A stretch of 64,000 nt of DNA from Holosporales bacterium (GCA_947449005.1 CANFPP010000001.1:8442-72441); one strand, 5' to 3'; shown: positions 11,683 to 58,679, counted from the first letter of the stretch. A program made the numbers and translations. Notes: a model not told the origin generated them from the sequence alone.

Positions 11683-11779
11683 GTTAAATCCACCATATTT
11701 GCGGGATTGATCTTAAAGCCCTTCATTACGTTATATATATTTAATTTATGTAACGTATGGGAGGTTATCTTTATTATTC

Positions 11780-11808
11780 TTGAAATTATTAATACAAATA
11801 CATATATG
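11780..11808 (+). promoter_or_regulatory. Conserved promoter of the IQ/helical-repeat family (copy 2)
   Basis: TTGAAA, 17-nt spacer, TATATG. Flanks are shared with 8064-8092. Confidence 0.5.
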
Positions 11809-11845
11809 TGTAAAATATCTAAAATTAATAAAAGAATAATATCCT

Positions 11846-15037: not shown

Positions 15038-15243
15038 AGATTTACCATTCGTCATTTTTTCAAACATCATCTTGATTGTTGTCTCCCCTCTCTCTGACAT
15101 TCTCACGAGGTGGGGGGATAGAGGGTAGAGATGTGAAAAACAACACTCTCCTTAGCGTGCCCCCAAGATTATCCTGGAGACCTCCCCCACACTGAATTGA
15201 ATGATTAAATAGAATAGAGGGTAAGATTATTACAGTTTCATCC

Positions 15244-15272
15244 TTGAAATCATTTTCACAAGTAATTATATA
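15244..15272 (+). promoter_or_regulatory. Conserved promoter of the IQ/helical-repeat family (copy 3)
   Basis: TTGAAA, 17-nt spacer, TATATA. Followed by ...CTAATAAAAGAATAATATCCCTATG, as in copy 2. Confidence 0.5.
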
Positions 15273-15311
15273 TGTAGAATATTCCAGCCCTAATAAAAGA
15301 ATAATATCCCT

Positions 15312-30596: not shown

Positions 30597-33500
30597 ATGT
30601 TTAAATATTTTTTATTCAACAGATCTTTAATATTGCTTTCAACTGTCTCTGTAGCTGCTCTCTACACTTCAGATGCGGCTGCTGCTATGCCTGCAAACGA
30701 ACCTCCGAAATGGTATCCTGAAGCGCATGTAGACCTGAAGCAGGGAACTAAACGCGGAATCGCGCAGGTTGGAACCATAACTCCTCTTGCCCAAAACGCT
30801 ACATCTCTTGCTTATCTTGATTTGCGTTTGATGTCTGACACAAACAAAGCAAAAGAAGGAAACTTTGGTGCGGGTGGAAGATGGCTAAAAGATGGTCGTT
30901 ATATCCTGGGAATGTATGCCTTTTATGATAGACGCTATACAGAGCTTAATAACGTTGTTAATCAGGTAACTGTTGGCTCTGAAATAATGAGTGATACCTG
31001 GGATTATCGCGTAAACGTGTATGTCCCTGAGAATCTTTCAAAAACAATAGTTAAAGAAACTAAGCCAGAACAGAAGACCACCTTTGCTGGTTATACCGAA
31101 ATTCAAAAAAGCACCCAATATTTAGTAAAAGAAGTTCCCCTAAGAGGTTTAGACCTTGAAATTGGGAGAGTCATCCCAGGATTCCCTGCCCTTAGAGTCT
31201 ATGGAGCTTATTATCATTTCCAAGGACGTGATGGTGTCGAGTCTGTAATTGGTGGACGTGTCCGAGCAAATCTAAAATTAAACAAATTTTTCTCATTCGA
31301 AACAGAAGTAAGTCGCGATAACGTCAGAAAAGAAGTTGCCTTCATTGGTATGAGACTGACGATTCCGCTTAGCAAAAATGGCTATAAACCATCAACACTA
31401 ACATCGCTTGAACAACGCATGGTCGAACAGCCAATGCGAGATATTGACGCTGTTACAAATACACAGAACAATACCCAAGTCAAAAAAGACGTGATTAAAG
31501 ATAATTTGCGCCACGTAAATGAAAAAGATGATCCCCTTGCCGATGGTAGCGCTGAACATCCATATCACATAGACAAAACAGATCATCTTGTAGAGTTAGG
31601 CGAGTCAAATGAAGGCGGAGGAACTCCAGAAACTATCGTATGGCAGAATGGAGTTTTAATAAGACGCGCAGACACCACAGATTTTCTTCATGAAAAATTT
31701 GGAACTTCAATAGAAACTGCTTTAGCACTTGGAAAGTTCAAGAAAATCCTAAACAGGATACGCCTCAACAAAGAGATTGAAGCGCGTAGACTGCAAGAAG
31801 TCAAATTTGCTAAAGAAGCAGCAGAACACGAAGCGTCAACAAAAACAAAAGCAGGCAGTTTTTATGAAGCTGCAAAAGCAGCAAAAGCTGCAAAGGATTT
31901 TGCTGAAGAAGAAGAGAAATTAAAATTTGAAAAAACAAAATACGAACACTTTGAAGCACAAGTAGACTTAGAAGCGGCAAAAGAAGCAACGCGAAAAGCA
32001 GCTAAAGATGCGGAACACAAGCAACAAGCTCAGGCAGAAGCAGCCGCTAAACATTGGAAAGAAACCACTAAGAAGAACCGTTTAGAGAAAGAAAGATTAG
32101 CTAGAGAGCAGGAAGAAGCTAGACACGTTAAAGAAGAAGATGAAGCAAGGCTCGCGGCGTTAAGAAAAGAATTTGCTGATGCTCAAAAAATTAAAGAAGC
32201 CGAACAAAAAGCAAGAGATTCTGCAGCAGCTGAACAAAGACTAAAAGATGAAGAAGCACAAAGAAAACTTGTTGAAGCTGCTCAAAAATTAAAAGCAGAA
32301 CAAGACGCTGAAAATATTAGACGTGCTAATGAAGCTGAAAGAATAAGACTTAAAAAAGAAGCTGATGCCCTTCAACTCGAAAAAGAAAAAGAAGTAGAAG
32401 CTCGCCGTCAAGAAATGATTCGTCGAGCAAAGAAAATTGCTGACGAAGAAGCACGAAGAGTTGAGCTGAAGAGAATCGCTGACAAACTTATTGAAGACGC
32501 GCGCATCGCTAAGGAAATCGAAGATAAGAGAATCGCTGATAAACTCATCGAAGATGCTCGTATCGCTAAGGAAATCGAAGACAAGAGAATCGCTGATAAA
32601 CTCATCGAAGATGCTCGTATCGCTAAGGAAATCGAAGACAAGAGAATCGCTGATAAACTCATCGAAGACGCACGCATCGCCAAGGAAATCGAAGATAAGA
32701 GAATCGCTGATAAACTCATCGAAGACGCCCGCATCGCCAAGGAAATCGAAGACAAGAGAATCGCTGATAAACTCATCGAAGATGCTCGTATCGCTAAGGA
32801 AATCGAAGACAAGAGAATCGCTGATAAACTCATCGAAGATGCTCGTATCGCTAAGGAAATCGAAGATAAGAGAATCGCTGACAAACTCATCGAAGATGCT
32901 CGTATCGCTAAGGAAATCGAAGACAAGAGAATCGCTGACAAACTCATCGAAGACGCTCGTATCGCTAAGGAAATCGAAGAAAAGAGAATCGCTGATAAAC
33001 TCATCGAAGACGCACGCATCGCCAAGGAAATCGAAGAAAAGAGAATCGCTGATAAACTCATCGAAGATGCTCGTATCGCCAAGGAAATCGAAGACAAGAG
33101 AATTGCTGATAAACTCATCGAAGATGCTCGTATCGCTAAGGAAATCGAAGATAAGAGAATCGCTGATAAACTCATCGAAGATGCTCGTATCGCTAAAGAA
33201 ATCGAAGATAAGAGAATCGCTGATAAACTCATCGAAGACGCACGCATCGCCAAGGAAATCGAAGAAAAGAGAATCGCTGATAAACTCATCGAAGACGCAC
33301 GCATCGCCAAGGAAATCGAAGATAAGAGAATCGCTGATAAACTCATCGAAGATGCTCGTATCGCTAAAGAAATCGAAGATAAGAGAATCGCTGATAAACT
33401 CATCGAAGACGCCCGCATCGCCAAGGAAATCGAAGATAAGAGAATCGCTGATAAACTCATCGAAGATGCTCGTATCGCTAAGGAAATCGAAGATAAGAGA

Positions 33501-36500
33501 ATCGCTGACAAACTCATCGAAGACGCTCGTATCGCTAAAGAAATCGAAGATAAGAGAATCGCTGATAAACTCATCGAAGATGCTCGTATCGCTAAGGAAA
33601 TAGAAGACAAGAGAATCGCTGATAAACTCATCGAAGATGCTCGTATCGCTAAAGAAATCGCTTCTAAAAAAACAATCGTCGATAACTTCAGATCTTTCAC
33701 TAAAGTTAAAAAAGCTAAAGCTAAACTTGCTGAGCTTAAAACGGCTGAAGTGTTAAGACTTGAAAACGTCAGAATTGAAAAAGAAACCGCAATTAATGCT
33801 CTAAAAGACAAAGTCCTTCAAGATGCTATCGCCGCAAATCTCCTTCATGAAGCTGACGAAGAGCGTAGAACTCAAATAGATCTGCAAGTCAAAGCTGAAA
33901 AAGCAAGACTCGTTGATCTCGAAGTGGCAGCCTTAGAACAACTAAGAGCAGATGAAGATAGACTCGCTAAACTTGATGCTCAAAATGAGAAAGAAACTGA
34001 ACTCGCTGAAATCGAAGATCAAAGGCTTAAAAACAAAAAACTCAAAAAAGCTGCTCAATTAGAGAGAAGAGCACAAAGAAGAGATGCTGCTGAAGCACAA
34101 AAACTCTCTCAAGAGCAAGCAAGAGAAGAACTTGAAAGAAATAATCTCGAAATTCAAGAAACACAACAAAAACAAACTGAGAAACTTAATACAGCTAAAA
34201 CAACTGTAGCTCAAAAATTACAAGATCTCATTAAAGTTAAAAAAGCCAGAAAACAACTTCAAACAGCTCGTGACGCAGCGACAACGATTCAATCCGCTTG
34301 GAGAATGAAGTCTGATCAATCTGCTTTCAGTGATCTCAAAGATGCGGTTAAAACCCTGCAAAACAAACAGAGAATGAGCTCAGCTAAAGCGGAACTTGCT
34401 AAACTTAAAGACACTAAACTCAAAGCTGACTCAGCCACAACCATCCAATCCGCTTGGAGAATGAAGTCAGACAAAACCGCTTTCAGCGATCTTAAAGATG
34501 CGGTTACAACCCTGCAAAATAAACAGAGATTGAGTACAGCTAAAGCAGATCTGAAAGCTAAGCGCGCAGAAGAGCAACAAGCATTTTTAGATTCTCTGCT
34601 CGGTGATGAAGAAACAAATACACCAGTAAGCGAAAGTCAGAGAAGACTTAGCGCTAGTCGTTCTGTAGACAAAGCAAACTTCGTTAATACCAGAAGAGGA
34701 AACAATCCCTCGATGAACTATGATGGTTCACCAATAACAAGGGGAGCAACTTTTGAAACTTTTGATTTTGGCACCGAGGATTTTGGCTATGATGGTACTT
34801 TTGGTGACGATATTGAAGGAGAAAGAGATTTTTCAGATAAGGGCACACCTAGAGATTTAAGTGATGATGAGATGTATGTAGGAGCATTACATCACGATGA
34901 TATCTACAGTGCGCCTGGTAACGAAGAATTTGCAGTTCCAAACATAATGAAAAAAGACGGTTCTAAAGAAGGTGCTGCAGAAGCTGAGATTAAAGGCACT
35001 CGCAGCGAAAAAGAAAAAACTGCTGTAGGAACGCGACGCAATTCGGTACCAGCAACACCTACTCAAGGTAAAAAGAAATTGCAAGTACGCCGTAAATCAG
35101 ATTCAACAACAATTGAGCAGCCAAGAGAACAACAAGCATCAACACCTAACACCTCAGGACAGGTTAGTGCGATGAAGAGCAAGTTGTTTGGGCCGAAATC
35201 AGTACGCAAATCTAAAGTGACTGGTAAAGACGAGGCAGCAATGTTTAAAGCTACATTGCCAGATCTTTCTACTATGGGAAGTCGTATCGCAGGAATCGAA
35301 AAATTGCCACTTGTGGACCGTCGTGCCGCGCTCACTAGACTTACTAATGAAATACACCGAGCTGAAGAAGTATTAGCCGTTGAGATAGAAACCCGGGCTT
35401 TTGAAAAGTCACTTCCTGCTGAACGAGCAGAGCTCGCTAAATTAAAAAGTGAAATCGAGAATCTGGAGAGAATAGCAAATGCAGAGGAACGCCGAGCTCT
35501 ATCTGCCGATATCCATAAAAGACTTGATGCAAAAGCAAAAGCAGTAGAGGGAACTGTAAAACGCAGAGAGAGTTTGGGTGCTCCTGCTGTTTCAAGTACC
35601 TCTATTGCTCAAAGTGCTAAACTTGCGGCTCAAACTTCTTCCGCGGAAGCGTCAATTTTTAGCCCAGGCACAGTAAAAGCAGCAGAAGATCTTGATAGAG
35701 CGGCAAAGCTCTATGATCTATCGTTGCAAGCTTATGAAGAGGCTCAACGTGTTGACGGTGAAGATCATGGAAGTCTACCGGCAGAAGGTCCTGTTACATC
35801 AAAATCATTACAGAGAGCAAAGAAAAGACTTCCACAGAATCGATTCACAAGCCCAGATGGTATTGTATTAAGCGATGCACCAACGCCAGATATGGATACC
35901 CCAAACCTCGATGATTTAACCCCTACCCCTGTTCACCAACAAAATGTTCAGAAGAGAAGAGAGTCAATAATCGGCAAAGGCTCAGCTTTAAAAGAAGCTC
36001 ATCAGGTGTTGCATCCTCAACAAGCTCCGGCGTTAAGCCTAAATGAAGAACTTGAGTTGGAAGAAGAACATTTAGAACAAGAAATTGCTGCACCTACTTC
36101 TAGGGCGAGACAACAAACACCTAGAAAACCACAGCATATTGAGGTTCGAAAAAGTATGCTCTCTCCTGATAGTCAGTTTTCTGGGCAAGTTGATGGTAGT
36201 TCAAGTGAGTCTGCTGATGAGAATGATGAATCTGGAATATTTGACCAAGGAGTGGATGATTCATTCACAAGCCCAGGTTCACTCGCAAGTCCGACTGAGG
36301 ATGTCAGATTTGGCGCCAAAGCAAGAGCTGGGTTAGCGAAAAGAAAAACATTATTTGGCCAACCTAAAACCCCAGGTCAGCACGGACAACAAGCTTCTAA
36401 TTCAGATGATGTGTACAACTATTCTCTAGGTAGTCCTGATTTTGTGATTGAAGGAACGCCCGTAAAATCAGTAGATTTTTCCGATAGCCCAAAGGTTGAA

Positions 36501-38021
36501 GAAAAGAAAAAATCAAGCATATCAAGAGCCCTGAAAGAAAAAGTTCGCGGACTCTTTTCTAACCTCGTAGGTGTTGTAAAAGAAGAAATTGCTGAGAGAG
36601 CTGCTGAAAGGGAAGCTGCTACACGTCGCGCTGAAGAGAACAGACGATATGATGCGGAAGAAATAATCCATCTACCTCTAAGTCAAGAAGTAATTGAAGC
36701 AGCTGCAAAAGCAAAAGAAAAAGGCATGACCCGTGATCAACAACTTAGAAAGCAAGGAGCTGATTTTGCAAGGCTTCATGCAGATAGTAAAATTGTTGAA
36801 AGAAAAGTTGGCTATTCTGAAGATCCAACTGATGGTCCTTTTTATAGTTTTTCTAAAGAACTTAGAGATAGTGGCGCTCAAGATAACTTTGAAGAAAGCA
36901 ATTTTCCAAGTAAAGAATTTACAGCTTCAGTATCATTTGATCCAACAGCTGAAATAGCAATAAAGCACTTTGAAAAAGCTATAGAACTTTCTCAACAAAC
37001 ACGTGAATTGTTTGAACAGCTGGCTGTGAGAGAAAAAGAATTGAAAAAAACAATGAAGACACTTCCTCCGCTTGAACAGACTAAGTTACTTATGACCATC
37101 TTGGATGAAAGAGAAGAAGTTCGGAGAACAATCAATCAAGCATACTTAGAATATGATAGAATTAAAAGCTCAATACCTACTGAGCAAAATAATCCATTTT
37201 CTTCAAACAGCAAGGCAGACGCTAGAAGAATCTCGATCATGGGAATCCCAAGTAATGGAGTAAGTTCAGATGCACAATCTACGTCATTCTCATCAGTGTC
37301 TGAAGCGGAAGAACGAGTGAATGAATTGGATAATATTGTAACTGGCTTAAGTCACTCCAGAGCTGAAACTCATGCTCCAACAGTTCGAGCTAAAGATAGA
37401 AATGATGATGCAACTTCATCAGCTTCCAGCAAACAAGAAGAACAAGTAGATGAATTGGGTGATATTGTAACTGGTTTAAATCAACACAGAGTTCAAGCTC
37501 CTTTTCCAACAGTTCATCATCAAAAAACCAAATCTACAGATGATGATGCAGCATCATCCGTTTCTAGCATACAAGAAGAACAAGTGAATGAATTGGATGA
37601 TATTGTAGCTCACTCAAATCAACACAGAGTGCAAGCTCCTGCTGCAATAGCTCATCATCAAGCAAGCAATGATGCAGATGATGATGCTTCATCCGTTTCT
37701 AGCAAAGGAGAAGAGCAGGTAGATGAATTGGGCGATATTATAACTGGCTTAAATCAACACAGAGTGCAAGCTCATGCTGCAACATCTCCTCATCAAACAA
37801 CCCAAGAAGCAGATGATGACACCTCATCTGCTTCCAGCATAGGAGAAGAACAAGTAAATGAATTGGATGACATTGTAACTCACTCAAATCAACACAGAGT
37901 GCAAGCTCCTACTCCAACGGTTCATCATCAAAAAACTGAAGATGCAGACGATGATGATGCCTCATCTGCTTCCAGCATAGGAGAAGAACAAGTAAATGAA
38001 TGGGATGATATTGTAACTTAA
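30597..38021 (+). CDS. Giant (2,474 aa) surface protein: N-terminal inverse-autotransporter-type beta-barrel plus a coiled-coil/repeat passenger
   Basis: Signal peptide ...ALYTSDAAA/A. aa about 40-290 match recalled intimin/invasin beta-domain blocks (FGAGGRWL...ILGMYAFYDRRY...VTVGSEIMSDTWDYRVNVYVP; ...RVYGAYYHFQG; linker LTSLEQRMVEQPMRDID). The remainder is K/E/A-rich coiled coil, 21 x 19-aa repeats, two IQ-like motifs, a long low-complexity region and C-terminal 45-aa repeats. Confidence 0.85.
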   Translation: MFKYFLFNRSLILLSTVSVAALYTSDAAAAMPANEPPKWYPEAHVDLKQGTKRGIAQVGTITPLAQNATSLAYLDLRLMSDTNKAKEGNFGAGGRWLKDGRYILGMYAFYDRRYTELNNVVNQVTVGSEIMSDTWDYRVNVYVPENLSKTIVKETKPEQKTTFAGYTEIQKSTQYLVKEVPLRGLDLEIGRVIPGFPALRVYGAYYHFQGRDGVESVIGGRVRANLKLNKFFSFETEVSRDNVRKEVAFIGMRLTIPLSKNGYKPSTLTSLEQRMVEQPMRDIDAVTNTQNNTQVKKDVIKDNLRHVNEKDDPLADGSAEHPYHIDKTDHLVELGESNEGGGTPETIVWQNGVLIRRADTTDFLHEKFGTSIETALALGKFKKILNRIRLNKEIEARRLQEVKFAKEAAEHEASTKTKAGSFYEAAKAAKAAKDFAEEEEKLKFEKTKYEHFEAQVDLEAAKEATRKAAKDAEHKQQAQAEAAAKHWKETTKKNRLEKERLAREQEEARHVKEEDEARLAALRKEFADAQKIKEAEQKARDSAAAEQRLKDEEAQRKLVEAAQKLKAEQDAENIRRANEAERIRLKKEADALQLEKEKEVEARRQEMIRRAKKIADEEARRVELKRIADKLIEDARIAKEIEDKRIADKLIEDARIAKEIEDKRIADKLIEDARIAKEIEDKRIADKLIEDARIAKEIEDKRIADKLIEDARIAKEIEDKRIADKLIEDARIAKEIEDKRIADKLIEDARIAKEIEDKRIADKLIEDARIAKEIEDKRIADKLIEDARIAKEIEEKRIADKLIEDARIAKEIEEKRIADKLIEDARIAKEIEDKRIADKLIEDARIAKEIEDKRIADKLIEDARIAKEIEDKRIADKLIEDARIAKEIEEKRIADKLIEDARIAKEIEDKRIADKLIEDARIAKEIEDKRIADKLIEDARIAKEIEDKRIADKLIEDARIAKEIEDKRIADKLIEDARIAKEIEDKRIADKLIEDARIAKEIEDKRIADKLIEDARIAKEIASKKTIVDNFRSFTKVKKAKAKLAELKTAEVLRLENVRIEKETAINALKDKVLQDAIAANLLHEADEERRTQIDLQVKAEKARLVDLEVAALEQLRADEDRLAKLDAQNEKETELAEIEDQRLKNKKLKKAAQLERRAQRRDAAEAQKLSQEQAREELERNNLEIQETQQKQTEKLNTAKTTVAQKLQDLIKVKKARKQLQTARDAATTIQSAWRMKSDQSAFSDLKDAVKTLQNKQRMSSAKAELAKLKDTKLKADSATTIQSAWRMKSDKTAFSDLKDAVTTLQNKQRLSTAKADLKAKRAEEQQAFLDSLLGDEETNTPVSESQRRLSASRSVDKANFVNTRRGNNPSMNYDGSPITRGATFETFDFGTEDFGYDGTFGDDIEGERDFSDKGTPRDLSDDEMYVGALHHDDIYSAPGNEEFAVPNIMKKDGSKEGAAEAEIKGTRSEKEKTAVGTRRNSVPATPTQGKKKLQVRRKSDSTTIEQPREQQASTPNTSGQVSAMKSKLFGPKSVRKSKVTGKDEAAMFKATLPDLSTMGSRIAGIEKLPLVDRRAALTRLTNEIHRAEEVLAVEIETRAFEKSLPAERAELAKLKSEIENLERIANAEERRALSADIHKRLDAKAKAVEGTVKRRESLGAPAVSSTSIAQSAKLAAQTSSAEASIFSPGTVKAAEDLDRAAKLYDLSLQAYEEAQRVDGEDHGSLPAEGPVTSKSLQRAKKRLPQNRFTSPDGIVLSDAPTPDMDTPNLDDLTPTPVHQQNVQKRRESIIGKGSALKEAHQVLHPQQAPALSLNEELELEEEHLEQEIAAPTSRARQQTPRKPQHIEVRKSMLSPDSQFSGQVDGSSSESADENDESGIFDQGVDDSFTSPGSLASPTEDVRFGAKARAGLAKRKTLFGQPKTPGQHGQQASNSDDVYNYSLGSPDFVIEGTPVKSVDFSDSPKVEEKKKSSISRALKEKVRGLFSNLVGVVKEEIAERAAEREAATRRAEENRRYDAEEIIHLPLSQEVIEAAAKAKEKGMTRDQQLRKQGADFARLHADSKIVERKVGYSEDPTDGPFYSFSKELRDSGAQDNFEESNFPSKEFTASVSFDPTAEIAIKHFEKAIELSQQTRELFEQLAVREKELKKTMKTLPPLEQTKLLMTILDEREEVRRTINQAYLEYDRIKSSIPTEQNNPFSSNSKADARRISIMGIPSNGVSSDAQSTSFSSVSEAEERVNELDNIVTGLSHSRAETHAPTVRAKDRNDDATSSASSKQEEQVDELGDIVTGLNQHRVQAPFPTVHHQKTKSTDDDAASSVSSIQEEQVNELDDIVAHSNQHRVQAPAAIAHHQASNDADDDASSVSSKGEEQVDELGDIITGLNQHRVQAHAATSPHQTTQEADDDTSSASSIGEEQVNELDDIVTHSNQHRVQAPTPTVHHQKTEDADDDDASSASSIGEEQVNEWDDIVT
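32463..33659 (+). repeat. Perfect-register tandem repeat, 21 x 57 bp (19 aa: E[DE]KRIADKLIEDARIAKEI)
   Basis: Counted directly: 1,197 bp = 21 x 57. The units differ at nine third-codon positions. Unit 1 also differs non-synonymously in codons 1-3 (ELK). Confidence 0.95.
37299..38018 (+). repeat. C-terminal tandem repeat of about 135 bp (45 aa), about 5.3 copies
   Basis: Unit EEQV[ND]EL[DG]DI[VI]T[GH].NQHRVQAP....HHQ....DDD.SS.SS.G. The last partial unit reads EEQVNEWDDIVT-stop. Confidence 0.85.
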
Positions 38022-42851: not shown

Positions 42852-42860
42852 TAAGAAAGT

Positions 42861-43254
42861 GTCAAATGGCCTATAAGCCGGGTTTTGTCCATGAGGGTTT
42901 ATTCTCACTGGATGATCATTCATCTGGGACGTTTGTTACCAAACGCCTCTAGCAACCAACCCGAGTAATAGTACACAAACATACTTGATAAACATAAATG
43001 CCTATCGCTTACTCCTATTTGGTCTTGCTCCAGGTGGGGTTTACCCTGCCACGCCTGTTACCAGTCGTGCGGTGCGCTTTTACCGCCCCATTTCACCCTT
43101 ACCTACACTTGCGTATAGGCGGTATATTTTCTGTGGCACTTTCCCTAAAGCCGGCCTTTTGAGCCAACCCCGCCGGACGTTATCCGGCACCTTGTTTGTA
43201 TGGAGCCCGGACTTTCCTCCAGGTTTACACCCAGCGATCATCCAGCCATTTGAC
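42861..43254 (-). ncRNA. rnpB: RNase P RNA (bacterial type A)
   Basis: The reverse complement contains GGAGGAAAGTCCGGGCTCC (43202-43220) and ACAAAACCCGGCTTAT (about 42872-42887). P1 pairs GTCAAATGGC (5') with GCCATTTGAC (3'). The track ORF 42985-43350 is the familiar spurious antisense translation. Confidence 0.88.
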
Positions 43255-43345
43255 GACTTTATAACGCGTCCATTTGTACTTCTTTGTCAATGTTTATTTA
43301 TGGATTGGCAGAGCTATCATTGCTCTGCTATACATTATGTGAGGG

Positions 43346-43432
43346 GTTGAGTGGTGGACGAGTTTTTCGCCAATCCGGTCAGATTCGGAAGGAAGCAGCC
43401 GTAACGATTACAAACTCGGGTTACTGCTCAAT
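43346..43432 (+). ncRNA. ffs: Signal recognition particle RNA (4.5S)
   Basis: CCGGTCAGATTCGGAAGGAAGCAGCCGTAACG matches the conserved SRP domain IV (E. coli CCAGGTCAGGTCCGGAAGGAAGCAGCC). The flanks pair (GAGTGGTGGACGAGTTT / AAACTCGGGTTACTGCTC). Position just upstream of dnaX is typical. Ends are approximate. Confidence 0.75.
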
Positions 43433-43484
43433 CTCTCATAACAGACTCATCTAAAATGAAGATGAGCATAGAGTATATAAATTA

Positions 43485-45507: not shown

Positions 45508-46914
45508 CTAACAACGTCCATATAGATCATCGATGCGCACAATATCATCTTCCCCAAGGTAAGATCCCGCTTGAACTTCAATTAAATGGAGCGGGATTTT
45601 TCCTGGATTTTCAACACTATGCGTACAACCAATTGGCAGATAAACAGATTCATTTTCATGAAGCATGAGAATTTCATCGTCGCGCGTCACTTTGGCTGTT
45701 CCATTAACAACGACCCAATGCTCTGCTCTATGATGGTGCATCTGTGTCGATGTTTTTGCTCCAGGATGCAGCATCAACCTTTTAACCTGAAAGCGTTCTC
45801 CTGCATCAACACTTTGGTAATAGCCCCAAGGACGATAAATGCGACTATGCATATCTAACTCTACGCGATTATTATTCTTAAGTTGATGCACAACTTCTTT
45901 AACACGCTGAGATTCACTTTTCTTCGCGATCAAAACAGCATCATCATGAACAATCACAATAAGATCATCCAATCCAATGACAGAAACTAATTTTTGATCA
46001 CTTCGAATATAGGAACCGCTAACATCTTGTATAACAACGTCACCGATTAAAACATTATCAGCATTATCTTTAACTGAAATATCCCAGAGCGCTTTCCATG
46101 ATCCAACATCTGACCATCCCATATCAACTGGAATAACAGCAGCATGGGGAGTGTGTTCCATAATCGCATAATCAATTGAGGCTTCTTGAATTTTTTCAAA
46201 AGCAACGGGATCAAGCCTCAGAAAATCTAAATCCTTCTCAGCAGCATTAAAGGCAGTTTCAGTTTGCTTCAATAAATCTGGTTGTAGTCGTTTTAACTCT
46301 TCAAGCATAACCTTCGCTTTACAGAGGAAAATTCCACTATTCCAAGAGTACTCACCGCTCGACACTAATTCTTTTGCTAATTCAAGAGTTGGTTTTTCTT
46401 GAAATTTTTGCACACAATAAATACCATATTCTATGAGAGTACCTTTTTGGATATAACCATAGCCTGTTTCAGGTTGAGTGGGATTAATACCAAATGTAAT
46501 AATTTTACCTTGTCGTGCTATCTTCTCAGCCTTAAAAACAGCCTTTAAAAAGGCCTCTTCATTCTCTATCACATGATCCGCTGGTAAAATTAGTAATAAA
46601 TCATCATCGTCTGGCCCGTGCGCCAAGCAAGCAGTCGCTACAGCTGGGGCCGTATTTCGACCAGCCGGCTCTAAAATTAAATGCTGCGGCACAATGTCAA
46701 GATGCCGTAATTGTTCTGCCACTAAAAAACGATGTTCTACATTGCAAATTACAATGGGTTGTTTAAACCGTGATTGATCGCCAACACGCAAGGCAGTTTC
46801 TTGCAGAAGCGTTTTATCACTTACAAGCGGTAAAAGTTGTTTGGGGAAAGCAGTTCGAGACATTGGCCATAAACGTGACCCACCGCCGCCACATAAAAGA
46901 ACAGGTGTAATCAT
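45508..46914 (-). CDS. manC: Bifunctional mannose-1-phosphate guanylyltransferase / mannose-6-phosphate isomerase (type II PMI-GMP)
   Basis: PVLLCGGGGSRLWPMSR N-terminus. C-terminal cupin HHRAEHWVVVNGTA. 4-nt overlap with fcl. Confidence 0.9.
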   Translation of the reverse strand: MITPVLLCGGGGSRLWPMSRTAFPKQLLPLVSDKTLLQETALRVGDQSRFKQPIVICNVEHRFLVAEQLRHLDIVPQHLILEPAGRNTAPAVATACLAHGPDDDDLLLILPADHVIENEEAFLKAVFKAEKIARQGKIITFGINPTQPETGYGYIQKGTLIEYGIYCVQKFQEKPTLELAKELVSSGEYSWNSGIFLCKAKVMLEELKRLQPDLLKQTETAFNAAEKDLDFLRLDPVAFEKIQEASIDYAIMEHTPHAAVIPVDMGWSDVGSWKALWDISVKDNADNVLIGDVVIQDVSGSYIRSDQKLVSVIGLDDLIVIVHDDAVLIAKKSESQRVKEVVHQLKNNNRVELDMHSRIYRPWGYYQSVDAGERFQVKRLMLHPGAKTSTQMHHHRAEHWVVVNGTAKVTRDDEILMLHENESVYLPIGCTHSVENPGKIPLHLIEVQAGSYLGEDDIVRIDDLYGRC

Positions 46915-47846
46915 AAGTTTCTCGCTAAAAAATCTTGATGTGCTATTTTAATGCCGTCCTTCAGCTTTGTTGTTGCGGTCCAACCGAGATTATTGATTCG
47001 TGTCGTGTCTAATAGCTTTCTTGGAGTTCCATCTGGTTTCGTACTATCATAAACAAAATCTCCCTGATACCCAACGACCTCTGCGATAATGTTTGCCAGA
47101 ACAGCTATAGAAATATCCTGCCCTACTCCGACATTAATTGGTAATCCATCTGAATAATTCTGCATCAAGAATACACACGCATCAGCGAGATCATCTACAT
47201 ACAAAAACTCACGCAGAGCTTTGCCTGTTCCCCATAAGATAACTTCTTTATATCCGCTTTTATGAGCTTGGGTAATTTTTCGAATCAATGCCGGAACAAC
47301 GTGACTATTCTCAGGGTGATAGTTATCAGCCGGTCCATATAAATTAGTCGGCATACAACTGATAAAATCGCATCCATACTGCTGGCGATACGCCTGTATC
47401 AATTTGATCCCAGCAATTTTTGCAATCGCATACCATTGATTAGTAGGCTCAAGTGGCCCGCTTAGAAGCTCTTCTTCTGAAATTGGCTGTGTTGCCTCTC
47501 TTGGATAGATGCAGGATGAACCAAGAAACAAAAGTTTTTGAACACCAACAGCATGAGCCCCACTAATAATGTTGGTCTGAATCATTAAATTATTGTAAAT
47601 AAAATCAACAGGACGCACAGAGTTTGCAAGAATTCCACCAACAGTAGCTGCTGCCAAAAATACGACTTCTGGCTTGTTGTGATTCATCCATTCATAAACT
47701 TCTGCTTGATTTTCAAGATTAACTTGAGCACGGCCCACATTCAAAATCGTACAATTTTCTCTAGATAATCGACGTACAATTGCACTGCCAACCATACCTT
47801 TGTGTCCAGCAACCCAAACACGTTTACCTTGAAGAGAATATATCAT
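46911..47846 (-). CDS. fcl: GDP-L-fucose synthase
   Basis: KRVWVAGHKGMVGSAIVRRL, SSCIYP, YAIAKIAG (catalytic Y..K). Confidence 0.9.
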   Translation of the reverse strand: MIYSLQGKRVWVAGHKGMVGSAIVRRLSRENCTILNVGRAQVNLENQAEVYEWMNHNKPEVVFLAAATVGGILANSVRPVDFIYNNLMIQTNIISGAHAVGVQKLLFLGSSCIYPREATQPISEEELLSGPLEPTNQWYAIAKIAGIKLIQAYRQQYGCDFISCMPTNLYGPADNYHPENSHVVPALIRKITQAHKSGYKEVILWGTGKALREFLYVDDLADACVFLMQNYSDGLPINVGVGQDISIAVLANIIAEVVGYQGDFVYDSTKPDGTPRKLLDTTRINNLGWTATTKLKDGIKIAHQDFLARNL

Positions 47847-48868
47847 TATAAGCTCAACTCTGATTGCATCATTTCCATCACAAGCTCATCAAAAGAAATT
47901 TTCGGAACCCATCCCATTTTTTCTTTAGCTTTCGTTGCATCCCCTAATAACAATTCAACTTCTGTCGGACGGAAATACTTGGAATCAATTGCGACGAGTT
48001 TTTTTCCTGTCTTTTCATCAACACCTATCTCATCAACGCCCTGTCCTTGCCATATAATTTTTATCTTTACATGTTCGAAACAACGCTCAACAAACTCTCT
48101 AACGGAATGCATTTCACCTGTTGCTAAAACAAAATCATCAGGAGTCGATTGTTGTAACATTAGCCACATACCATAGACATAATCCTTAGCATGACCCCAA
48201 TCACGTTTTGCATCCAGATTTCCTAGGAAAAGGCAATCTTGCTTATTCGCAATAATATTAGCAACTGCTTTGGTTATTTTACGGGTTACAAAAGTTTCAC
48301 CACGAATTGGACTTTCATGATTAAATAAAATTCCATTACATGCATACATATCATAAGCTTCACGATAATTTACGGTTATCCAATATGCGTATAACTTGGC
48401 TGCTGCATAGGGACTACGTGGATAAAATGGTGTGGTTTCTTTTTGAGGAATTTCTTGAACTTTTCCATAAAGTTCTGATGTTGATGCCTGATAAAAACGT
48501 GTGTGCTTTTCCATCTTTAAAATGCGGATTGCCTCTAATAATCTAAGCGTTCCAACACCATCAGCATTAGCTGTATATTCAGGCGTCTCAAAACTTACAG
48601 CTACATGACTTTGCGCTGCCAAGTTATAAATTTCAGTAGGTCTAATTTCACTCATTAATCGAATAAGGTTTGTTGAATCTGTCATGTCACCATAATGAAG
48701 GTGCAATTGATCAGAAAGAGAATCAATACGACCTGTATTCGGCAGTGACGATCGACGTTGAAGTCCATGAACCTCATACCCTTTATTCAATAAAAGCTCT
48801 GCAAGGTAAGCTCCATCTTGCCCTGTTATACCGGTTATAAGAGCAACTTTATTAGATTCTTGGGACAC
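47846..48868 (-). CDS. gmd: GDP-mannose 4,6-dehydratase
   Basis: [47 protein letters not shown]. Confidence 0.93.
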
Positions 48869-50639
48869 GACTAGACTCCAATAAATGATGAGATTTAACG
48901 ACTTGAGGAAGAACTGGAGAAAGAGGGTTATTCACTGCGCAAAAACATAATGTTTTTCCTTTGCTTTCTTCAAGTGCTACTTGAAACTCTTTTTTAGAAT
49001 ACACAATCATAGACTGTCCTTTGTTTAAGAAATTAAGGACAGAAGCAACAGTTACGATTCTATCGTTCTTGTTGATGTCGTTTGCTAACAAAGTCCATTC
49101 GTTAACTAACTCATTGGATGATTTTTTAAAAACCTCAAGAAAGCGAGAAATCTTAATATTAGGAGCAAGCAATGCTGAAGCCTCATCAACACGATCAGAT
49201 GAAAGATGAAAATAAGGTGAGCCAGAAAGACTTCTGACAATAAGTGCTGTTTCCCCTTCTGCACAACCATAATTATTTTTGTAATCATTGGCAGCTATCT
49301 GAGAATAACTATTTCGCAAACATGAGGGGCCAATTAGAATAATTGCCATTAAAATCAAAGAGAGAATAACTGATGGGCATCGACAAATTCTTTGAGAAAT
49401 TGCGTCCTCATCAAAACATCCTGCTTTTGATTCTTTGAAAAAACCAGAAAAAACGATCCCGGCAGCAGCGGCAATAAAAGGAAAAATTGTAACAAAAACT
49501 CGAACCTGTCCATCTTGCCAGATAACAGGAATGGACAACAAAGCTCCTGCAAAAACTGCCCACAGCAACCCTATTTTTTTGTCATTCTGACCAATTTTTC
49601 TTAAACGATTTAAACCTATAAATAGTCCACAAAAACCAATTACAGAAAAAAGCCCTTTTAAAGTGCGATTGCTTACTAAGCCTAATGAAAAAGATCGTCC
49701 TAATCCTTCAATAAACAGCCATAATCCCTTTAACAGCCCCAATACTAAGTTAAAGGGATTGCTCACAATAAGTTTAAAGGCTTCTTGATAGATAAACTGT
49801 GCACGATCCGATTGCGCACCGGGAACATTATGGACTATATAAACATAATTCCAAGATTTTCCTCCAGCAGCTAAACCGTAAAGAGTCTCTGAGAAATTTG
49901 CATGTGCAACACCGCTGCCCAACGGGTCTCCATATATTTTTAATAAGATAGAATTAAAAACAAATCCGAAAATAATAGAGAATGTAACTATCGCCATAGC
50001 TTTTAAATTTAATCGCTCTGAAGATCTAAAATGATATCCTCCCCAAAGAATTAAACAAGGTAGAATAAAAAATGGTCCTGCGCGTGTATTTAAAGCAATT
50101 GAAAAGATCAGTGCGCCAAAAGAAAATAGCCTGAGATTATTTAAAGCCGCTCCTTGCCATAAAATAGCAAAAGCTAAAGCTCCCCAAACAAACCCTAAAG
50201 ACTCAGAAAGAGTGATTGCAAGATAGGGCGAAACCGCAAAGAACAAACCAAAAAAAACAACAATAGCCGCTATTTTTCCATGCGTTCGTAAAACTGCTAA
50301 AGACGCTAATCCGCAACAAATGCCGGCTAAAATGGTTTGAATTATCAAAGCTGCATAAAAATTAAGCCCTGTAATCCCTAAACGAAAAGCATAGAAAAGC
50401 GCATTAATAGGCCTTCGCATATTCCAGCCATTAAGGTGACCTACTTCTAAAAAATTATAAGCTCCTTCGTAATACCCATTCGCGTCACTATGAGGTATAA
50501 TGCCGCCTATTGCTGAATATGCAGTCGGAAAACAATCACCAAGGGGGAAATAAGCCCAAGCATTCCAAAGAGGAACCATAAAAACAAGGCCTACCAAAAG
50601 CCACAGAAAAAATGGCCGAGAAATGCAAAGCTTCATCAA
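48852..50639 (-). CDS. Large polytopic membrane protein (595 aa), putative GT-C-type glycosyltransferase
   Basis: Roughly 11-13 hydrophobic helices, then a C-terminal soluble domain of about 170 aa. The first extracytoplasmic loop carries [14 protein letters not shown] at about aa 50, where GT-C enzymes place catalytic acidic residues. Starts immediately after the GT2 stop (TAA-TTG-ATG). The functional call is inference. Confidence 0.7.
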
Positions 50640-52079
50640 TTAGAAAGCCTTTAGTTTACGGAAAGCAAAAACAACCATTTTCAATAAGAGCCAACCATGC
50701 TGAAAGCGAGAAATGTTTGTTGTGCCATAAGTTCTCGCTGCATACCGAACAGGTATTTCAACTACTTTTAGATTTAATTTTGCCGCACCAAAAATTAAAT
50801 CAAAATCACCGAAAGGATCAAAGTCACCAAAATAATGACGGTTACGTGCAATTTCCAAATAATGTCTTTTATACAAAACCTTCGTACCACAAAGCGTATC
50901 AGTAAATCGTTGATTAAGCAGATAACTGAAAATCCAAGAAAATGCTTTATTCGCCAAGAAATTCAAAAACTGCATTGCCTGATTTTCCATCGGGTAAATA
51001 AGGCGTGTTCCATTAATAAACTCACCCTTTCCGCTAGCTAAAGCATGATAGAATTTTGGCATATCTTCTGGTGGAGTTGTCAAATCTCCATCTAAAATCA
51101 TTAAAATATCATTTTTCGCCGCATCAAAACCACAACGAACAGCATCCCCCTTACCCTTGCCTGGTTGAACAAGAACTTTAATATCGTACTGAGGGTAAGC
51201 GGAAATCACTCGGTTAATTTCTGCAAGGGTATTATCCTTACTGTGCCCTTCTACGAATAAGATTTCTAAGTCATCACAAAATCTTGGCAGGCGCTGAATT
51301 GCAGCTTCAATGTTACCCTCTTCATTTCTGCAGGTGATTAACACTGTCGTAGATGGCATTTTTTTAGCCGGCTTTGGATCAGGCCTGGCAACAATATAAT
51401 TACGCAGACATAAACGGCGAATTCCTGGCAAAGTCCCGATATAGCGGTTAATAAGCGTTCCTATTCCAAAAAAACTCTTTGGAACGAGTTGTCGCCATTC
51501 TCGTTTTATTGTTTCATAACCAGATAGATCTAATAGACCTATAATATCAGCCGTTGATAAAGAGTTTTGATTACCCGCTGCCAGCTGAGGCATCTTTTTT
51601 CCAGCTTTCTCTGCAAGCCTTAACAGAGGTTCCCAGCCTTTTGCGTAATAAGATATGATAATCCGTGTATCAGGAGTACAAAGAGAAAGTAGATTCGTAA
51701 GTGTTTGTTGGCAATCTTCAAGAAATCCTATCGTGTCCGAAAGCACAATAATATCAAAGGGTCCACTAAGTGACTCTACGAAGCTTTTATCTTCGATATC
51801 CCCTTGGTGAAACTTTAAATGAGGGAAACGTTTTTGTGAAATTTCCACCATTTTTGGACTAATATCAACACCAACACCAACGGAAGGCTCAAGAGCATTG
51901 AGGACATCTCCAGCACCACAGCCTAGATCAAGAACTCTTAGATTTTTCGGAGCTAAGAATTTCAAATACTCCCAATCTTGCTCATGAAAATATTTGTTTT
52001 TCTGAATCCAAGCTTCTCTAATTCCTGCTAACCCATTGTTAACATCGATAATTTTTTGCTTTCTTAAAGATTGTTCCAT
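50640..52079 (-). CDS. Fusion protein: class I SAM methyltransferase (N-terminal) plus family-2 glycosyltransferase (C-terminal, polyprenyl-phosphate-sugar synthase-like)
   Basis: VLDLGCGAGDVL (SAM motif I) at about aa 50. GT2 blocks TTVLITCRNEEGNI, EILFVEGHSKDNT, MILDGDLTTPPED (DxD). Confidence 0.8.
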   Translation of the reverse strand: MEQSLRKQKIIDVNNGLAGIREAWIQKNKYFHEQDWEYLKFLAPKNLRVLDLGCGAGDVLNALEPSVGVGVDISPKMVEISQKRFPHLKFHQGDIEDKSFVESLSGPFDIIVLSDTIGFLEDCQQTLTNLLSLCTPDTRIIISYYAKGWEPLLRLAEKAGKKMPQLAAGNQNSLSTADIIGLLDLSGYETIKREWRQLVPKSFFGIGTLINRYIGTLPGIRRLCLRNYIVARPDPKPAKKMPSTTVLITCRNEEGNIEAAIQRLPRFCDDLEILFVEGHSKDNTLAEINRVISAYPQYDIKVLVQPGKGKGDAVRCGFDAAKNDILMILDGDLTTPPEDMPKFYHALASGKGEFINGTRLIYPMENQAMQFLNFLANKAFSWIFSYLLNQRFTDTLCGTKVLYKRHYLEIARNRHYFGDFDPFGDFDLIFGAAKLNLKVVEIPVRYAARTYGTTNISRFQHGWLLLKMVVFAFRKLKAF

Positions 52080-52094
52080 TAAATATTTCCAGTT

Positions 52095-55838: not shown

Positions 55839-57065
55839 TTAATGTGCTGCCCATTGAATTGATTTCAGATCAATTCCTTCTTGTGCCATTTCCCAAAGTG
55901 GACTCATCTCTCTTAAACGCTCCACTGCCGCCACCATTTTCTCTATCGTTTGATCGACTTCATCTATTGTTGTAAATCTTCCCAGACCAAACCGAATCGA
56001 TGTATGGGCAAGCTCAATCTCAACCCCAAGTGCCCGCAAAACATAAGATGGTTCAAGAGATGAAGATGTGCATGCTGAACCAGAAGAAACTGATAATTCT
56101 TTAATCCCCATCATCAATCCTTCTCCCTCAACATAAGCAAAGCTCAAGTTAAGATTGCCAGGAACACGTTGATCTTTATCTCCATTTAAGAAAACATCTG
56201 GCAAACGTTGCATAATTCCTTGATACAAACGATCCCTAAGTGCGCTTAGCTTAATGTTCTCATCGACCATTTCTTTTTGAGCAATTTCACAAGCCTCCCC
56301 AAGTCCAACGCACAAAGGTGTTGGCAATGTTCCTGAACGCATTCCTCGTTCTTGGCCGCCGCCATTAATAATCGCTTGCAATCGAACTCTTGGTTTGCGC
56401 CTAACGAATAACGCACCAATTCCCTTTGGACCATAAATTTTATGCCCAGAAATGCTCAATAAATCAATGTTCATTTCATTAACATCAATCGCGATTTTTC
56501 CGATAGCTTGCGCAGCATCTGTATGGAAAAATACACCTTTTTCCCGGCAAATTTTTCCGATTTCTTTTAACGGCTGGATGACCCCAATTTCATTATTCAC
56601 CGCCATAATTGAAACCAAAATCGTCTGATCCGTAATTGAGTCCTGCAGCAGATTTAAATCAATAATACCATTTTGTTGCACGGGTAAGTAGGTTATCCGA
56701 AACCCTTGTTGCTCCAGATGACGACAACTATCTAACACGCATTTATGTTCCGTAACGCACGTAATGATATGCTTTTTACGATCTTGATAAAACTGCGCCA
56801 CACCTTTGATCGCAAGGTTATTAGACTCTGTTGCACCGCTGGTAAAAACGATCTCTCTTTCATCAGCACCAATAATATTTGCAACTTGTAAGCGCGCTTT
56901 ATCTACTGCTGACTCTGCAAGCCAACCATGCGGGTGACTGCGAGAATGCGGATTCCCAAAAATCTCCGTAAAATAAGGCAACATCTTATCAAGCACTCTC
57001 GGATCACATGGAGTTGTTGCTTGATAATCTAAATAGATCTGTTGTGTCATTTCAGGTGTTGGCAT
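55839..57065 (-). CDS. iscS: Cysteine desulfurase IscS
   Basis: [20 protein letters not shown] (PLP Lys), SSGSACTS (active-site Cys). Confidence 0.93.
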
Positions 57066-58191
57066 AAATCCCCTCTTGCGTAGATTTTAAAAGGCGCTGT
57101 GGAGCGCATCTACTATAAATTTGTTTCCACATATCAATCATTGTTTCTATTTCAAAGGACCGCGTTTGCCATCCCAAACTTACGCGAATCGCAGAATTTG
57201 TCTTTGATGACGGCAATCCCATTGCCTGTAAAATTCGAGACGTTTTTACTTTACCCGAAGAACATGCAGACCCTGCACTAACAGCAATTCCACTTAAATC
57301 AAAATTCATTAATTGAACATCACTTTTAACGCCTGGCATTGTTAAATTAGAAGTGTTTGGCAGCCTTGGAATATTCTTACCAAAAACATCAACATCCAAG
57401 CAAAAAGCTTGAATTTCATCCTCGAATCGATCTCGAAGCAAGCGAATTTCATCCCATGGGTCCTTCAAACATTCTTTCAAGGCTGCTTCAAATCCCATAA
57501 TTCCTAAAATATTCTCTGTTCCTCCACGGTTAGATCTCTCCTGCCCGCCACCAATAATTTGAGCTTTTAGAGCAAGATTTGGAGAAACAATAAGCGCCCC
57601 AACGCCAGCCGGCCCGCCAATTTTATGGCTAGAAATTGACAACATATCAAAAGAAATTTGAGACCAGTCAAGTTTCAGTTTTCCAACCGCTTGCGTTGCA
57701 TCACAATGAAAAAACGCCTGATGCTTTTTTACTAAAGCTGCAATCTCTGAAATGGGCTGAATAACTCCTGTTTCATTATTAGCAGCCATAACAGACACCA
57801 AAACTTTTTCATCATGATGACTCTGCAACAAAGACTCAAGTTTTTCTAAGCTGACAACTCCATCTTCATCAACAGGGCAGCTGAGAGCATCACTACAGAC
57901 TTGATGAATAGAATCATGCTCAACCGCAGAAATAATCTTTATTCCGTCAAATCCTTTTAAGGCCAAGTTATTGGCTTCTGTCGCTCCGCTGGTAAAAACA
58001 ATCTGCTTTGGTTCTGCACTGAAGAAATCAGCGATAGTATGACGAGCCGACTCCAGATGCTGGCGAACCTTTCTGCCCCAGGCATGCACTGAAGATGGAT
58101 TCCCTGTCATATCCATAGCCTTAATCATAGCCACCTTAGCCTCTAATCGAAGAGGCGTTGTCGCATTATAATCAAGATAAATTTTTGACAT
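57052..58191 (-). CDS. Second cysteine desulfurase (NifS-like paralog)
   Basis: Start moved to [13 protein letters not shown] (58191), 2 nt after the iscR stop. [10 protein letters not shown] (PLP Lys), SAGSACSSG (Cys). Confidence 0.88.
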
Positions 58192-58193
58192 AA

Positions 58194-58679
58194 TTATAAC
58201 GACCTTGAAATTTTTGAAAGCCCTGCATCTTGAGGCATCATCCAAAAACGCCCCATTCCCATCACTCGCTGATTACAAACATCAGCCAAGGTGACTCTCG
58301 CTAAAAAAAGCTGAACAACAGCACCAAGTTCATCCCAAAGATCATGCGTCATACACCGACCACCGCCTGGCTGACATCCTACTGGCGATCCATTTTCACA
58401 GCGGGTTGCCTTCAAAGACGTATCAACAGCTGTAATAATATCAAGAATACGTATTTCTTCAGGCGTGCGAACTAAATTATAGCCTCCAGCAGCGCCTCTT
58501 GAGCTTTTCACTAAATTCGCTTTACGGAGCTTTAAAAATAATTGTTCCAAATATGCAAGAGGAAGGTTCTGGCGTTCTGCAATTGTTGTTAAAGCTACGG
58601 GGTGACCACTCGACAATATATTTTGAGAAATATCAGCCATGGCCATTACAGCGTATCTTGCTTTTGTTGTTAGCCGCAT
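58194..58679 (-). CDS. iscR: Rrf2-family Fe-S regulator IscR
   Basis: MRLTTKARYAVMAMADI N-terminal wHTH. Three-Cys cluster-ligand region CENGSPVGCQPGGGRCMTH. Confidence 0.85.
   Translation of the reverse strand: MRLTTKARYAVMAMADISQNILSSGHPVALTTIAERQNLPLAYLEQLFLKLRKANLVKSSRGAAGGYNLVRTPEEIRILDIITAVDTSLKATRCENGSPVGCQPGGGRCMTHDLWDELGAVVQLFLARVTLADVCNQRVMGMGRFWMMPQDAGLSKISRSL

Follow-up and report, generated by a model that had tools for sequence, protein, structure and literature searches.

The logic of three-component periplasmic glycosylation was reportedly set out in a review by Mann & Whitfield in 2016. In the Gtr systems the components are a flippase (GtrA), an undecaprenyl-phosphate-glucose synthase (GtrB) and a GT-C glycosyltransferase (GtrC), of which GtrB is conserved and GtrC variable (Kelly et al. 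2024, PMC11127046). The nearest systems for comparison also include the ArnC/ArnT pathway for lipid A aminoarabinose, the rhizobial RgtD/RgtA-F galacturonic acid system, the dolichyl- and polyprenyl-phosphate-mannose synthases with their GT-C partners, and the Agl pathway of Haloferax volcanii. We describe here a five-gene cassette in a 64,000-nucleotide stretch of DNA from a Holosporales bacterium (GCA_947449005.1, CANFPP010000001.1:8442-72441; the whole stretch is referred to as the window), which encodes a fusion of an S-adenosylmethionine (SAM)-dependent methyltransferase to a GT2 glycosyltransferase, a polytopic membrane protein, and three enzymes of guanosine diphosphate (GDP)-sugar synthesis. 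Most likely, the cassette charges a membrane lipid carrier with a sugar from a GDP donor, probably fucose and possibly in methylated form, which is then moved onto a surface molecule outside the cytoplasm. We regard the underlying architecture, a lipid-phosphate-sugar synthase together with a GT-C periplasmic transferase, as probable.

The five genes form a tightly packed run on the minus strand (45508-52079) in the order fusion, membrane protein, gmd, fcl and manC (Table 1). The TTG-ATG at the start of the membrane-protein gene directly abuts the TAA of the fusion gene, and gene callers choose the ATG one codon after the TTG, giving a product of 594 aa. From the coordinates, the membrane-protein gene overlaps gmd by 17 nt, gmd overlaps fcl by 1 nt and fcl overlaps manC by 4 nt. 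The GDP-sugar genes are recognized by NCBIfam models, with 585 bits for gmd (cutoff 415) and 687 bits for manC (cutoff 373); fcl scores 490 bits against NF047922 over its full length, slightly below the cutoff of 500.

The methyltransferase domain of the fusion matches the Pfam families Methyltransf_31, 23, 25, 12 and 11 (E 1e-17 to 3e-11), its SAM-binding motifs are intact, and G53, C54, G55, G57 and D72 are invariant in the fusion family. Comparison of a family profile with solved structures gives phosphoethanolamine N-methyltransferases of plants and parasites as the best relatives (E ~3e-15), above generic methyltransferases. We rejected an assignment as a phosphoethanolamine N-methyltransferase since the alignment covers the SAM-binding core only, and for the same reason the substrate of the domain is not inferable from these relatives. 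The GT2 domain carries the DPM1/ArnC-type motifs DGDLTTPPED and EIPVRYAARTYG, both near-invariant in 19 family members. In the alignments, the motif LMILDGDLTTPPEDMPKFY is matched by DADLQNPPEEIP in ArnC and by DADLQHPPEVIP in dolichyl-phosphate-mannose synthase (DPMS), and EIPVRYAARTYG by EIPVHHAEREFGESK and EVPFTFGIRARGESK; the elements DxDL..PPE and a C-terminal E-[IV]-P...R..G are common to all three proteins. With the single sequence, ArnC and the archaeal DPMS are the best matches in the PDB, and with a 19-sequence profile the order is DPMS (5mlz, 1.9e-19), ArnC (9e-14), PcManGT (1e-10) and GtrB (2e-8), glycan-elongating GT2 enzymes such as the chondroitin and heparosan synthases scoring far lower. 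The best NCBIfam models are AglJ (E=3e-25), a dolichyl-phosphate-hexose transferase, ArnC and PgfS, all under their equivalog cutoffs. These comparisons support a grouping of the GT2 domain with the polyprenyl-phosphate-sugar synthases and not with other GT2 enzymes, and we propose that the fusion is a polyprenyl-phosphate-sugar synthase with a fused SAM-dependent methyltransferase. Its C-terminus is a conserved amphipathic tail, GWLLLKMVVFAFRKLKAF. A sequence-only reading of the window had proposed the five minus-strand genes with these coordinates and junctions, the identities of gmd, fcl and manC, the SAM-methyltransferase::GT2 fusion with its DxD motif, and a kinship of the GT2 domain with DPM1, ArnC and GtrB; all of these held, the fusion through its Pfam domains and D330-G-D332, and the kinship through the order of the PDB profile matches.

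The membrane protein has no match in Pfam or NCBIfam (E ≤ 0.01), PF13231/PF02366 (ArnT/PMT_2) at that threshold and PF04932 (Wzy_C) included, and neither the protein nor its family profile finds anything meaningful in the PDB by sequence. Weak Pfam matches are present among 60 relatives, with PMT_2 in five (best 7.6e-7) and Wzy_C in one (1.8e-4). A word-indexed homology search returned six relatives only, and the same six when started from the 60-sequence alignment, a limitation of the tool; an exhaustive profile search recovered 2119 cluster representatives of the family, 1305 of them at E ≤ 1e-30. A genome scan with the single sequence found no relative among GTDB species representatives. 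G46, D52, R76, G149, R186, G188, P295, S369 and R380 are invariant in the 60-sequence alignment, and P49, A53, E146, N248, F249, Y254, D376, C459 and C567 are at least 90% conserved.

An AlphaFold (AF2) model built on the 60-sequence alignment, which replaced a poor earlier model from six sequences (predicted local distance difference test, pLDDT, 57), is confident (pLDDT 89.3, predicted template-modelling score 0.92). Foldseek comparison of this model with the PDB places Pmt4 and ALG12 at the top, and nearly all of the top 20 matches are GT-C enzymes (Pmt4, ALG12, STT3, ALG9, EmbA/B/C, Pmt1/2, ArnT and PglB) with probabilities of 0.82-1.00, E values of 4e-4 to 3e-2 and template-modelling scores near 0.35; the similarity is distant. 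Only one of these 20 falls outside the group, a major facilitator superfamily transporter (probability 0.21), transporters further down reach 0.28 at most, and WaaL, Wzy and SEDS structures are absent from the matches. The model helices, hydrophobicity and the positive-inside rule together point to about 11 transmembrane helices with the N-terminus in and the C-terminus out, which would place D52 and R76 in the first periplasmic loop and E146 and R186 at periplasmic helix ends, with a conserved ANFSxTLYG..GGKxW segment in a large predicted periplasmic loop. D52 is a candidate catalytic or donor-binding acidic residue of that first loop. This layout agrees with the GT-C superfamily, whose members have 8-13 or more transmembrane helices and conserve an acidic residue in the first loop outside the cytoplasm.

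We conclude from the model that the protein has a GT-C fold and belongs to a family outside Pfam, NCBIfam and the PDB; its relation to ArnT and PMT_2 is at the superfamily level only. We propose that it is a periplasmic transferase using a lipid-linked sugar, and the use of a lipid-phosphate-sugar donor is supported indirectly by the linkage of its gene to the synthase-like fusion. Three other assignments were rejected: a PglB/STT3-type oligosaccharyltransferase (GT66), given that there is no WWDYG, no STT3 signature or Pfam match and only distant fold similarity; a transporter, for which fold probabilities do not exceed 0.28; and a Wzy polymerase or ligase, which one of 60 relatives weakly matches. 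The sequence-only reading had described the protein as polytopic, its C-terminus forming a soluble domain, with which the secondary structure of the model agrees, and had suggested a distinct GT-C family, which is upheld by the lack of sequence matches, the weak PMT_2 signal in five of 60 relatives and the GT-C fold matches. It was also right that WWDYG is lacking (we find no WWD motif) and that no GtrA-like flippase or polymerase/ligase gene is adjacent (window scans find none, and none for Wzy or a ligase in the remainder of the 64 kb). Its acidic loop-1 motif stands as regards the invariant D52 in loop 1; the likeness to PglB that it noted there is generic to GT-C enzymes and marks no PglB relationship. 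Classification as a transporter, which it had named as a possible refutation, was not borne out by Foldseek, because GT-C enzymes fill the top ranks and transporters lie at background.

The cassette is not a one-off and is part of a very widespread modular system with the fusion as its core. The gene order of the window recurs in unrelated contigs (L002, L095 and L098), with variants in L010, L015 and L008, and the arrangement is therefore not due to chance. L002 has the five genes of the window plus a second methyltransferase gene, L004 combines gmd and fcl with genes for the fusion, a methyltransferase and the membrane protein, and in L005 the fusion and membrane genes lie within a large polysaccharide cluster. 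The membrane gene adjoins methyltransferase and GT2 genes in all three distant homologues with a readable context, and at 13 metagenome loci found through the membrane protein the fusion lies within a few kb in six, with most of the others truncated and only L104 clearly without it. Two unannotated membrane proteins (586 and 683 aa) encoded beside fusion orthologues belong to the family of the window's protein (hhalign probability 100%); a GT87 protein beside the Sulfuricella fusion orthologue was rejected as a relative (hhalign probability 0.3%).

The fusion itself is distributed far more broadly than this, with more than 8000 matches scored and at least 582 loci among species-representative genomes. 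Its carriers include Bradyrhizobium, Afipia, Nitrospira, metagenome-assembled genomes (MAGs) of Legionella and Holosporales, bacteria of the candidate phyla radiation, and an archaeal MAG. Proteins of Burkholderiales and Rhodocyclales share 65-70% identity with it, and 52-58% identity to the window fusion is retained in the archaeon MAG (L084), Candidatus Magasanikbacteria (L081), Omnitrophota (L083 and L087) and Elusimicrobiota (L054). Conservation this unusually high across phyla argues for strong constraint and horizontal spread. Within cassette pairs the fusions are 56-68% identical and the membrane proteins 29-38%.

In a census of 80 genomes, the neighbours lying within 10 kb of the fusion include the membrane family in seven, gmd in ten, fcl in 11, manC in nine, and a second, 242-aa methyltransferase in 37. 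Other polytopic neighbours in the census are PMT_2 (nine), PMT (three), YfhO (three) and Wzy_C (seven) proteins, and further neighbours elsewhere include GT87 proteins and a DedA/VTT gene; some fusion loci lie inside O-antigen clusters with ATP-binding-cassette (ABC) transporter, Wzy_C and WecA-like genes. A gene for a PF03706 MprF-type 'LPG_synthase_TM' flippase-like protein is near the fusion in 12-13 of the 80 genomes, usually directly upstream (for example L029 8970-9944, L012 4751-5698 and L088 8984-9955), and its product, which the window lacks, is a candidate for flipping the lipid-linked sugar. In a neighbour-joining tree the window's fusion falls in a clade of ten, all ten linked to the membrane family, and gmd-fcl is present in all eight clade members with informative flanks. 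The membrane family is enriched beside gmd and fcl together (9/16 versus 6/73; Fisher p=5e-5, a rough value because the two sets were ascertained differently). The fusion would be the conserved donor-making core of the widespread system, with a variable GT-C partner setting the acceptor.

The free-standing SAM-methyltransferase gene of about 242 codons usually follows the fusion gene elsewhere (e.g. L002 13082-13810, and in one cluster of 30 loci) and is missing from the window cassette, and its presence suggests double methylation of the sugar, or methylation at another position, in related systems. The DedA/VTT gene lies directly after manC in a related cassette (L010 14440-15177 and L011 11320-12057). 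DedA proteins are implicated in the recycling of undecaprenyl or polyprenyl phosphate, and such a neighbour would fit a carrier-lipid pathway.

A three-component-type mechanism is proposed on the grounds of a conserved synthase, a variable GT-C protein and an optional flippase, often within polysaccharide clusters. By family assignment, ManC, Gmd and Fcl are the cytoplasmic source of GDP-mannose and GDP-L-fucose. The fusion would be kept at the membrane by amphipathic helices or a partner protein, and its GT2 domain would load a GDP-linked sugar, in this clade most likely L-fucose, onto polyprenyl phosphate; similarly, human DPM1 and, in mycobacteria, the Ppm1 catalytic domain have no transmembrane helices and rely on a membrane partner. 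The fused methyltransferase probably methylates the sugar, either before or after loading, and the lipid-linked product would be flipped by a protein encoded outside the cassette. HexSDF of C. difficile is said to provide a precedent for a GT2 enzyme working with an MprF-like flippase. In the periplasm the GT-C-fold protein would move the sugar to its acceptor, with D52 of loop 1 and the arginines R76, R186 and R380, predicted to lie on the same face, as candidates for catalysis and phosphate binding, and the C-terminal periplasmic domain would aid acceptor recognition. Lipopolysaccharide (LPS) or another surface polysaccharide is the most likely acceptor, since related loci lie in O-antigen-like clusters. 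We rejected a giant secreted protein as the acceptor; evidence in the window is neither for nor against it, and nothing links the two.

Given the architecture, we lean towards fucose or a methylated derivative as the loaded sugar, because the cassette is self-contained, travels with gmd-fcl, and by a scan of open reading frames (ORFs) and domains encodes no other glycosyltransferase able to consume GDP-fucose. The fuller account, put forward tentatively, is that the cassette may make polyprenyl-phosphate-L-fucose (or O-methyl-fucose) for periplasmic fucosylation by a new GT-C family, and that the fusion may be the universal donor core of a 'methyl-sugar decoration' system with interchangeable GT-C enzymes in at least 582 species. 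Several observations weigh against the proposed mechanism. The membrane family is found at only seven of the 80 fusion loci, and neither the cassette nor the rest of the window encodes a GtrA-like, PF03706 (LPG_synthase_TM-like) or small multidrug-type flippase. No transmembrane helix is predicted in the fusion, in contrast to GtrB, ArnC and archaeal DPMS, and the synthase 'GESK' motif is altered, with ESK replaced by TT(N/Q) to give G-T-T-(N/Q). The nearest solved relatives of the methyltransferase domain are phosphoethanolamine N-methyltransferases and not sugar O-methyltransferases. The literature search found no experimental work on any member of the fusion or membrane families; within its incomplete coverage it also found no description of polyprenyl-phosphate-fucose, this methyltransferase::GT2 fusion, a GT-C fucosyltransferase or this GT-C family. 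Finally, characterized GT2 fucosyltransferases of the WrtF/WbdO type have the DxD altered to GAD or N(A/S)GD because GDP-beta-L-fucose is equatorially linked (PMC12595478), whereas the GT2 domain here keeps the canonical DxD (DGD), and its best solved relatives, as judged by profile comparison, use GDP-mannose; WrtF is not among the best 60 PDB matches of the GT2 family profile. Mannose could be the loaded sugar on the strength of the canonical DGD and the GDP-mannose-using relatives, and an alternative with the same architecture is that mannose or O-methyl-mannose is carried on the lipid and that Gmd and Fcl feed a cytoplasmic fucosyltransferase encoded elsewhere. The kinship with DPMS and PcManGT, together with the DGD, points to an axially linked GDP-alpha-D-sugar donor, and fusions 55-70% identical to that of the window are found at many loci without gmd or fcl, some with manC only, or gmd and manC, nearby. 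We nonetheless consider this rather unlikely for the window cassette, where gmd and fcl accompany the fusion in eight of eight informative clade members, the membrane family is specifically enriched beside that gene pair, and the cassette offers no other transferase to use GDP-fucose.

A different role for the fusion has a precedent in WsaE, one of the glycan-capping methyltransferase-glycosyltransferase fusions that exist. The fusion could be a cytoplasmic chain-modifying or capping enzyme (like WsaE, or functionally like WbdD-type terminators) that adds a sugar to a glycan linked to undecaprenyl diphosphate and methylates it, with the membrane protein as a polymerase, ligase or export component and not a glycosyltransferase with a lipid-phosphate-sugar donor. 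This would accord with the fusion's lack of transmembrane helices, the loci within the O-antigen clusters described above, and the one of 60 membrane-family members that weakly matches Wzy_C. It is improbable in view of the GT2 domain being nearest to polyprenyl-phosphate-sugar synthases, with motifs in common and elongating GT2 enzymes much lower, of a membrane-protein fold shared with GT-C enzymes that use donor lipids (PMT, ALG, STT3, Emb, ArnT) and not with WaaL or SEDS, and of the repeated position of the fusion beside recognized GT-C families and flippase-like genes. Chance neighbourhood, in which the membrane protein is a transporter or an unrelated protein caught between a sugar-nucleotide operon and a glycosyltransferase gene, is scarcely credible: the membrane protein has no family annotation and the cassette sits between unrelated housekeeping genes (isc and dnaX/ybaB), but conserved synteny contradicts it, with order and adjacency recurring in distant lineages, and so do the background-level probabilities of transporters in the fold comparison and the association with gmd and fcl (p=5e-5). 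Synthesis of a lipid-linked sugar and its periplasmic transfer by a GT-C protein, with fucose favoured as the sugar, is the reading that we retain.

Table 1. Coordinates of the cassette genes and of features within their products, counted from the first nucleotide of the window.
Feature	Coordinates	Strand	Details
Methyltransferase::GT2 fusion gene	50640-52079	-	479 aa, ATG start, TAA stop
Class I SAM-methyltransferase domain, residues ~40-190	51510-51962	-	VLDLGCGAGD as SAM motif I
GT2 (GT-A fold) domain, residues ~240-479	50643-51362	-	PF00535; domain match at residues ~245-467
DxD of the GT2 domain, D330-G-D332	51084-51092	-	sequence motif
Membrane-protein gene	48852-50639	-	595 aa counted from TTG
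14-residue loop-1 motif, residues 50-63, including invariant D52	50451-50492	-	after transmembrane helix 1 (7-30) and before the next transmembrane helix in the model
C-terminal alpha/beta soluble domain, residues ~445-595	48855-49307	-	predicted periplasmic; near-invariant C459 and C567
gmd, GDP-mannose 4,6-dehydratase	47846-48868	-	GTG start; TIGR01472
fcl, GDP-L-fucose synthase (3,5-epimerase/4-reductase)	46911-47846	-	NF047922
manC, bifunctional mannose-1-phosphate guanylyltransferase / mannose-6-phosphate isomerase	45508-46914	-	TIGR01479
Spacer from iscX stop to fusion ATG	52080-52094	-	15 nt; iscX stop at 52095

The cassette is flanked in the window by unrelated housekeeping genes, the isc operon on one side and ybaB/dnaX on the other. 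A consensus-based scan of low power found no terminator-like or promoter-like site on the minus strand of the iscX-fusion interval; with no terminator-like site in the spacer, read-through from the isc operon, and hence co-transcription, is plausible. Such co-transcription would be incidental because the cassette has other genomic contexts elsewhere. No manB gene was found within the 64-kb window. The isc operon contains tandem overlapping ORFs of 408 and 397 aa (55839-57065 and 57052-58245, both on the minus strand), which begin with similar motifs, one being IYLDYNATT; read from the translations alone, they suggest two cysteine-desulfurase paralogues upstream of iscU-hscB-hscA-fdx-iscX. On the other side, the window's dnaX product has a DUF3646 domain at its C-terminus, a domain whose distribution points to an alphaproteobacterium, and just upstream of dnaX are genes for RNase P RNA (class A, 305 bits; 42858-43253, minus strand) and signal recognition particle RNA (43344-43437, plus strand); a 121-aa ORF overlapping the RNase P gene (42985-43350, plus strand) is almost certainly spurious. 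In the metagenomic contig L010 a dnaX gene (1-1478, minus strand) also lies a few kb from the cassette, as in the window, and this is probably a coincidence.

Elsewhere in the window there are genes for large secreted proteins (620, 393, 1063, 1269 and 2474 aa) at 8132-19121 and 30597-38021, both on the plus strand. Their signal peptides are near-identical (e.g. MKK..K.TSTVLMLSLM.T..NA), and no Pfam family matches them beyond weak hits of two proteins to the IQ calmodulin-binding motif; across 31-37 kb the skew of A over T is very strong (0.25-0.44). These proteins have the look of paralogous effectors or adhesins from a host-associated bacterium, and a GC content of about 39% in the window, together with many large secreted proteins without Pfam families, suggests that the source bacterium is host-associated.

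If the proposal is correct, it would establish a new GT-C family, blank in current databases and comprising some 2100 sequence clusters, and would give a role to one of the most conserved uncharacterized glycosyltransferase fusions in bacteria. It would also define a new class of lipid-linked donor, in which a 6-deoxyhexose, possibly methylated, is carried on polyprenyl phosphate. Periplasmic decorations of this kind alter serotype, phage receptors and immune recognition, and surface hydrophobicity rises with methylated or deoxy sugars. Compact, and self-contained but for a flippase and manB, the five-gene cassette is potentially useful for glycoengineering.

The cassette has features in common with each of the described systems. 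It is like Gtr in having a GtrB-related GT2 domain (PDB 5ekp, 2e-8) and a GT-C-fold membrane protein, in the combination of a conserved synthase with a fast-evolving, swappable GT-C partner, and in its frequent location inside polysaccharide clusters. It differs from Gtr in lacking GtrA, the flippase candidate of its relatives being the MprF-type PF03706 protein, and in a synthase that is without the two C-terminal transmembrane helices of GtrB and is fused to a SAM-methyltransferase; it also carries its own GDP-sugar genes where Gtr relies on uridine diphosphate-glucose, and its GT-C protein is of an unannotated family. As in the Arn system, the genes for sugar-nucleotide synthesis, lipid loading and periplasmic transfer share one operon, ArnC is near to the GT2 domain (9e-14, with motifs in common) and ArnT is among the fold matches of the membrane protein (5ezm). 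However, the membrane protein reaches ArnT by fold only (E=2.5e-2) with no PMT_2 Pfam match, the sugar would be a GDP-6-deoxyhexose or mannose, there are no genes for ArnE/F-type flippases, and a methyltransferase domain is present where Arn has formyl and deformylase steps.

The dolichyl- and polyprenyl-phosphate-mannose synthases (P. furiosus DPMS 5mlz, DPM1 and Ppm1), which act with PMT, ALG and Pim GT-C enzymes, provide the best solved match of the GT2 domain and likewise use a GDP-sugar donor, and the fold comparison of the membrane protein is headed by Pmt4 and ALG12; in contrast to these, the cassette synthase is fused to a methyltransferase, coupled to GDP-fucose genes and changed at the 'GESK' motif, and its GT-C partner is a separate family. 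In the Agl pathway AglP reportedly methylates a lipid-linked sugar, the final sugar is said to be delivered from its own dolichyl-phosphate carrier, and a 6-deoxyhexose is reportedly associated with dolichol phosphate. The pathway offers precedents for such a 6-deoxyhexose and for methylating lipid-linked sugars with SAM. Among the NCBIfam matches of the GT2 domain, the pathway's dolichyl-phosphate-hexose synthase AglJ ranks first, below cutoff, although Agl is a system of archaeal N-glycosylation with separate enzymes, no fusion and a protein-bound glycan acceptor. Overall, the cassette works like Gtr, Arn and DPMS-PMT but without a linked flippase, a transmembrane anchor on the synthase or a PMT_2/STT3 signature, and what it adds to these three is the fused methyltransferase and the GDP-sugar genes.

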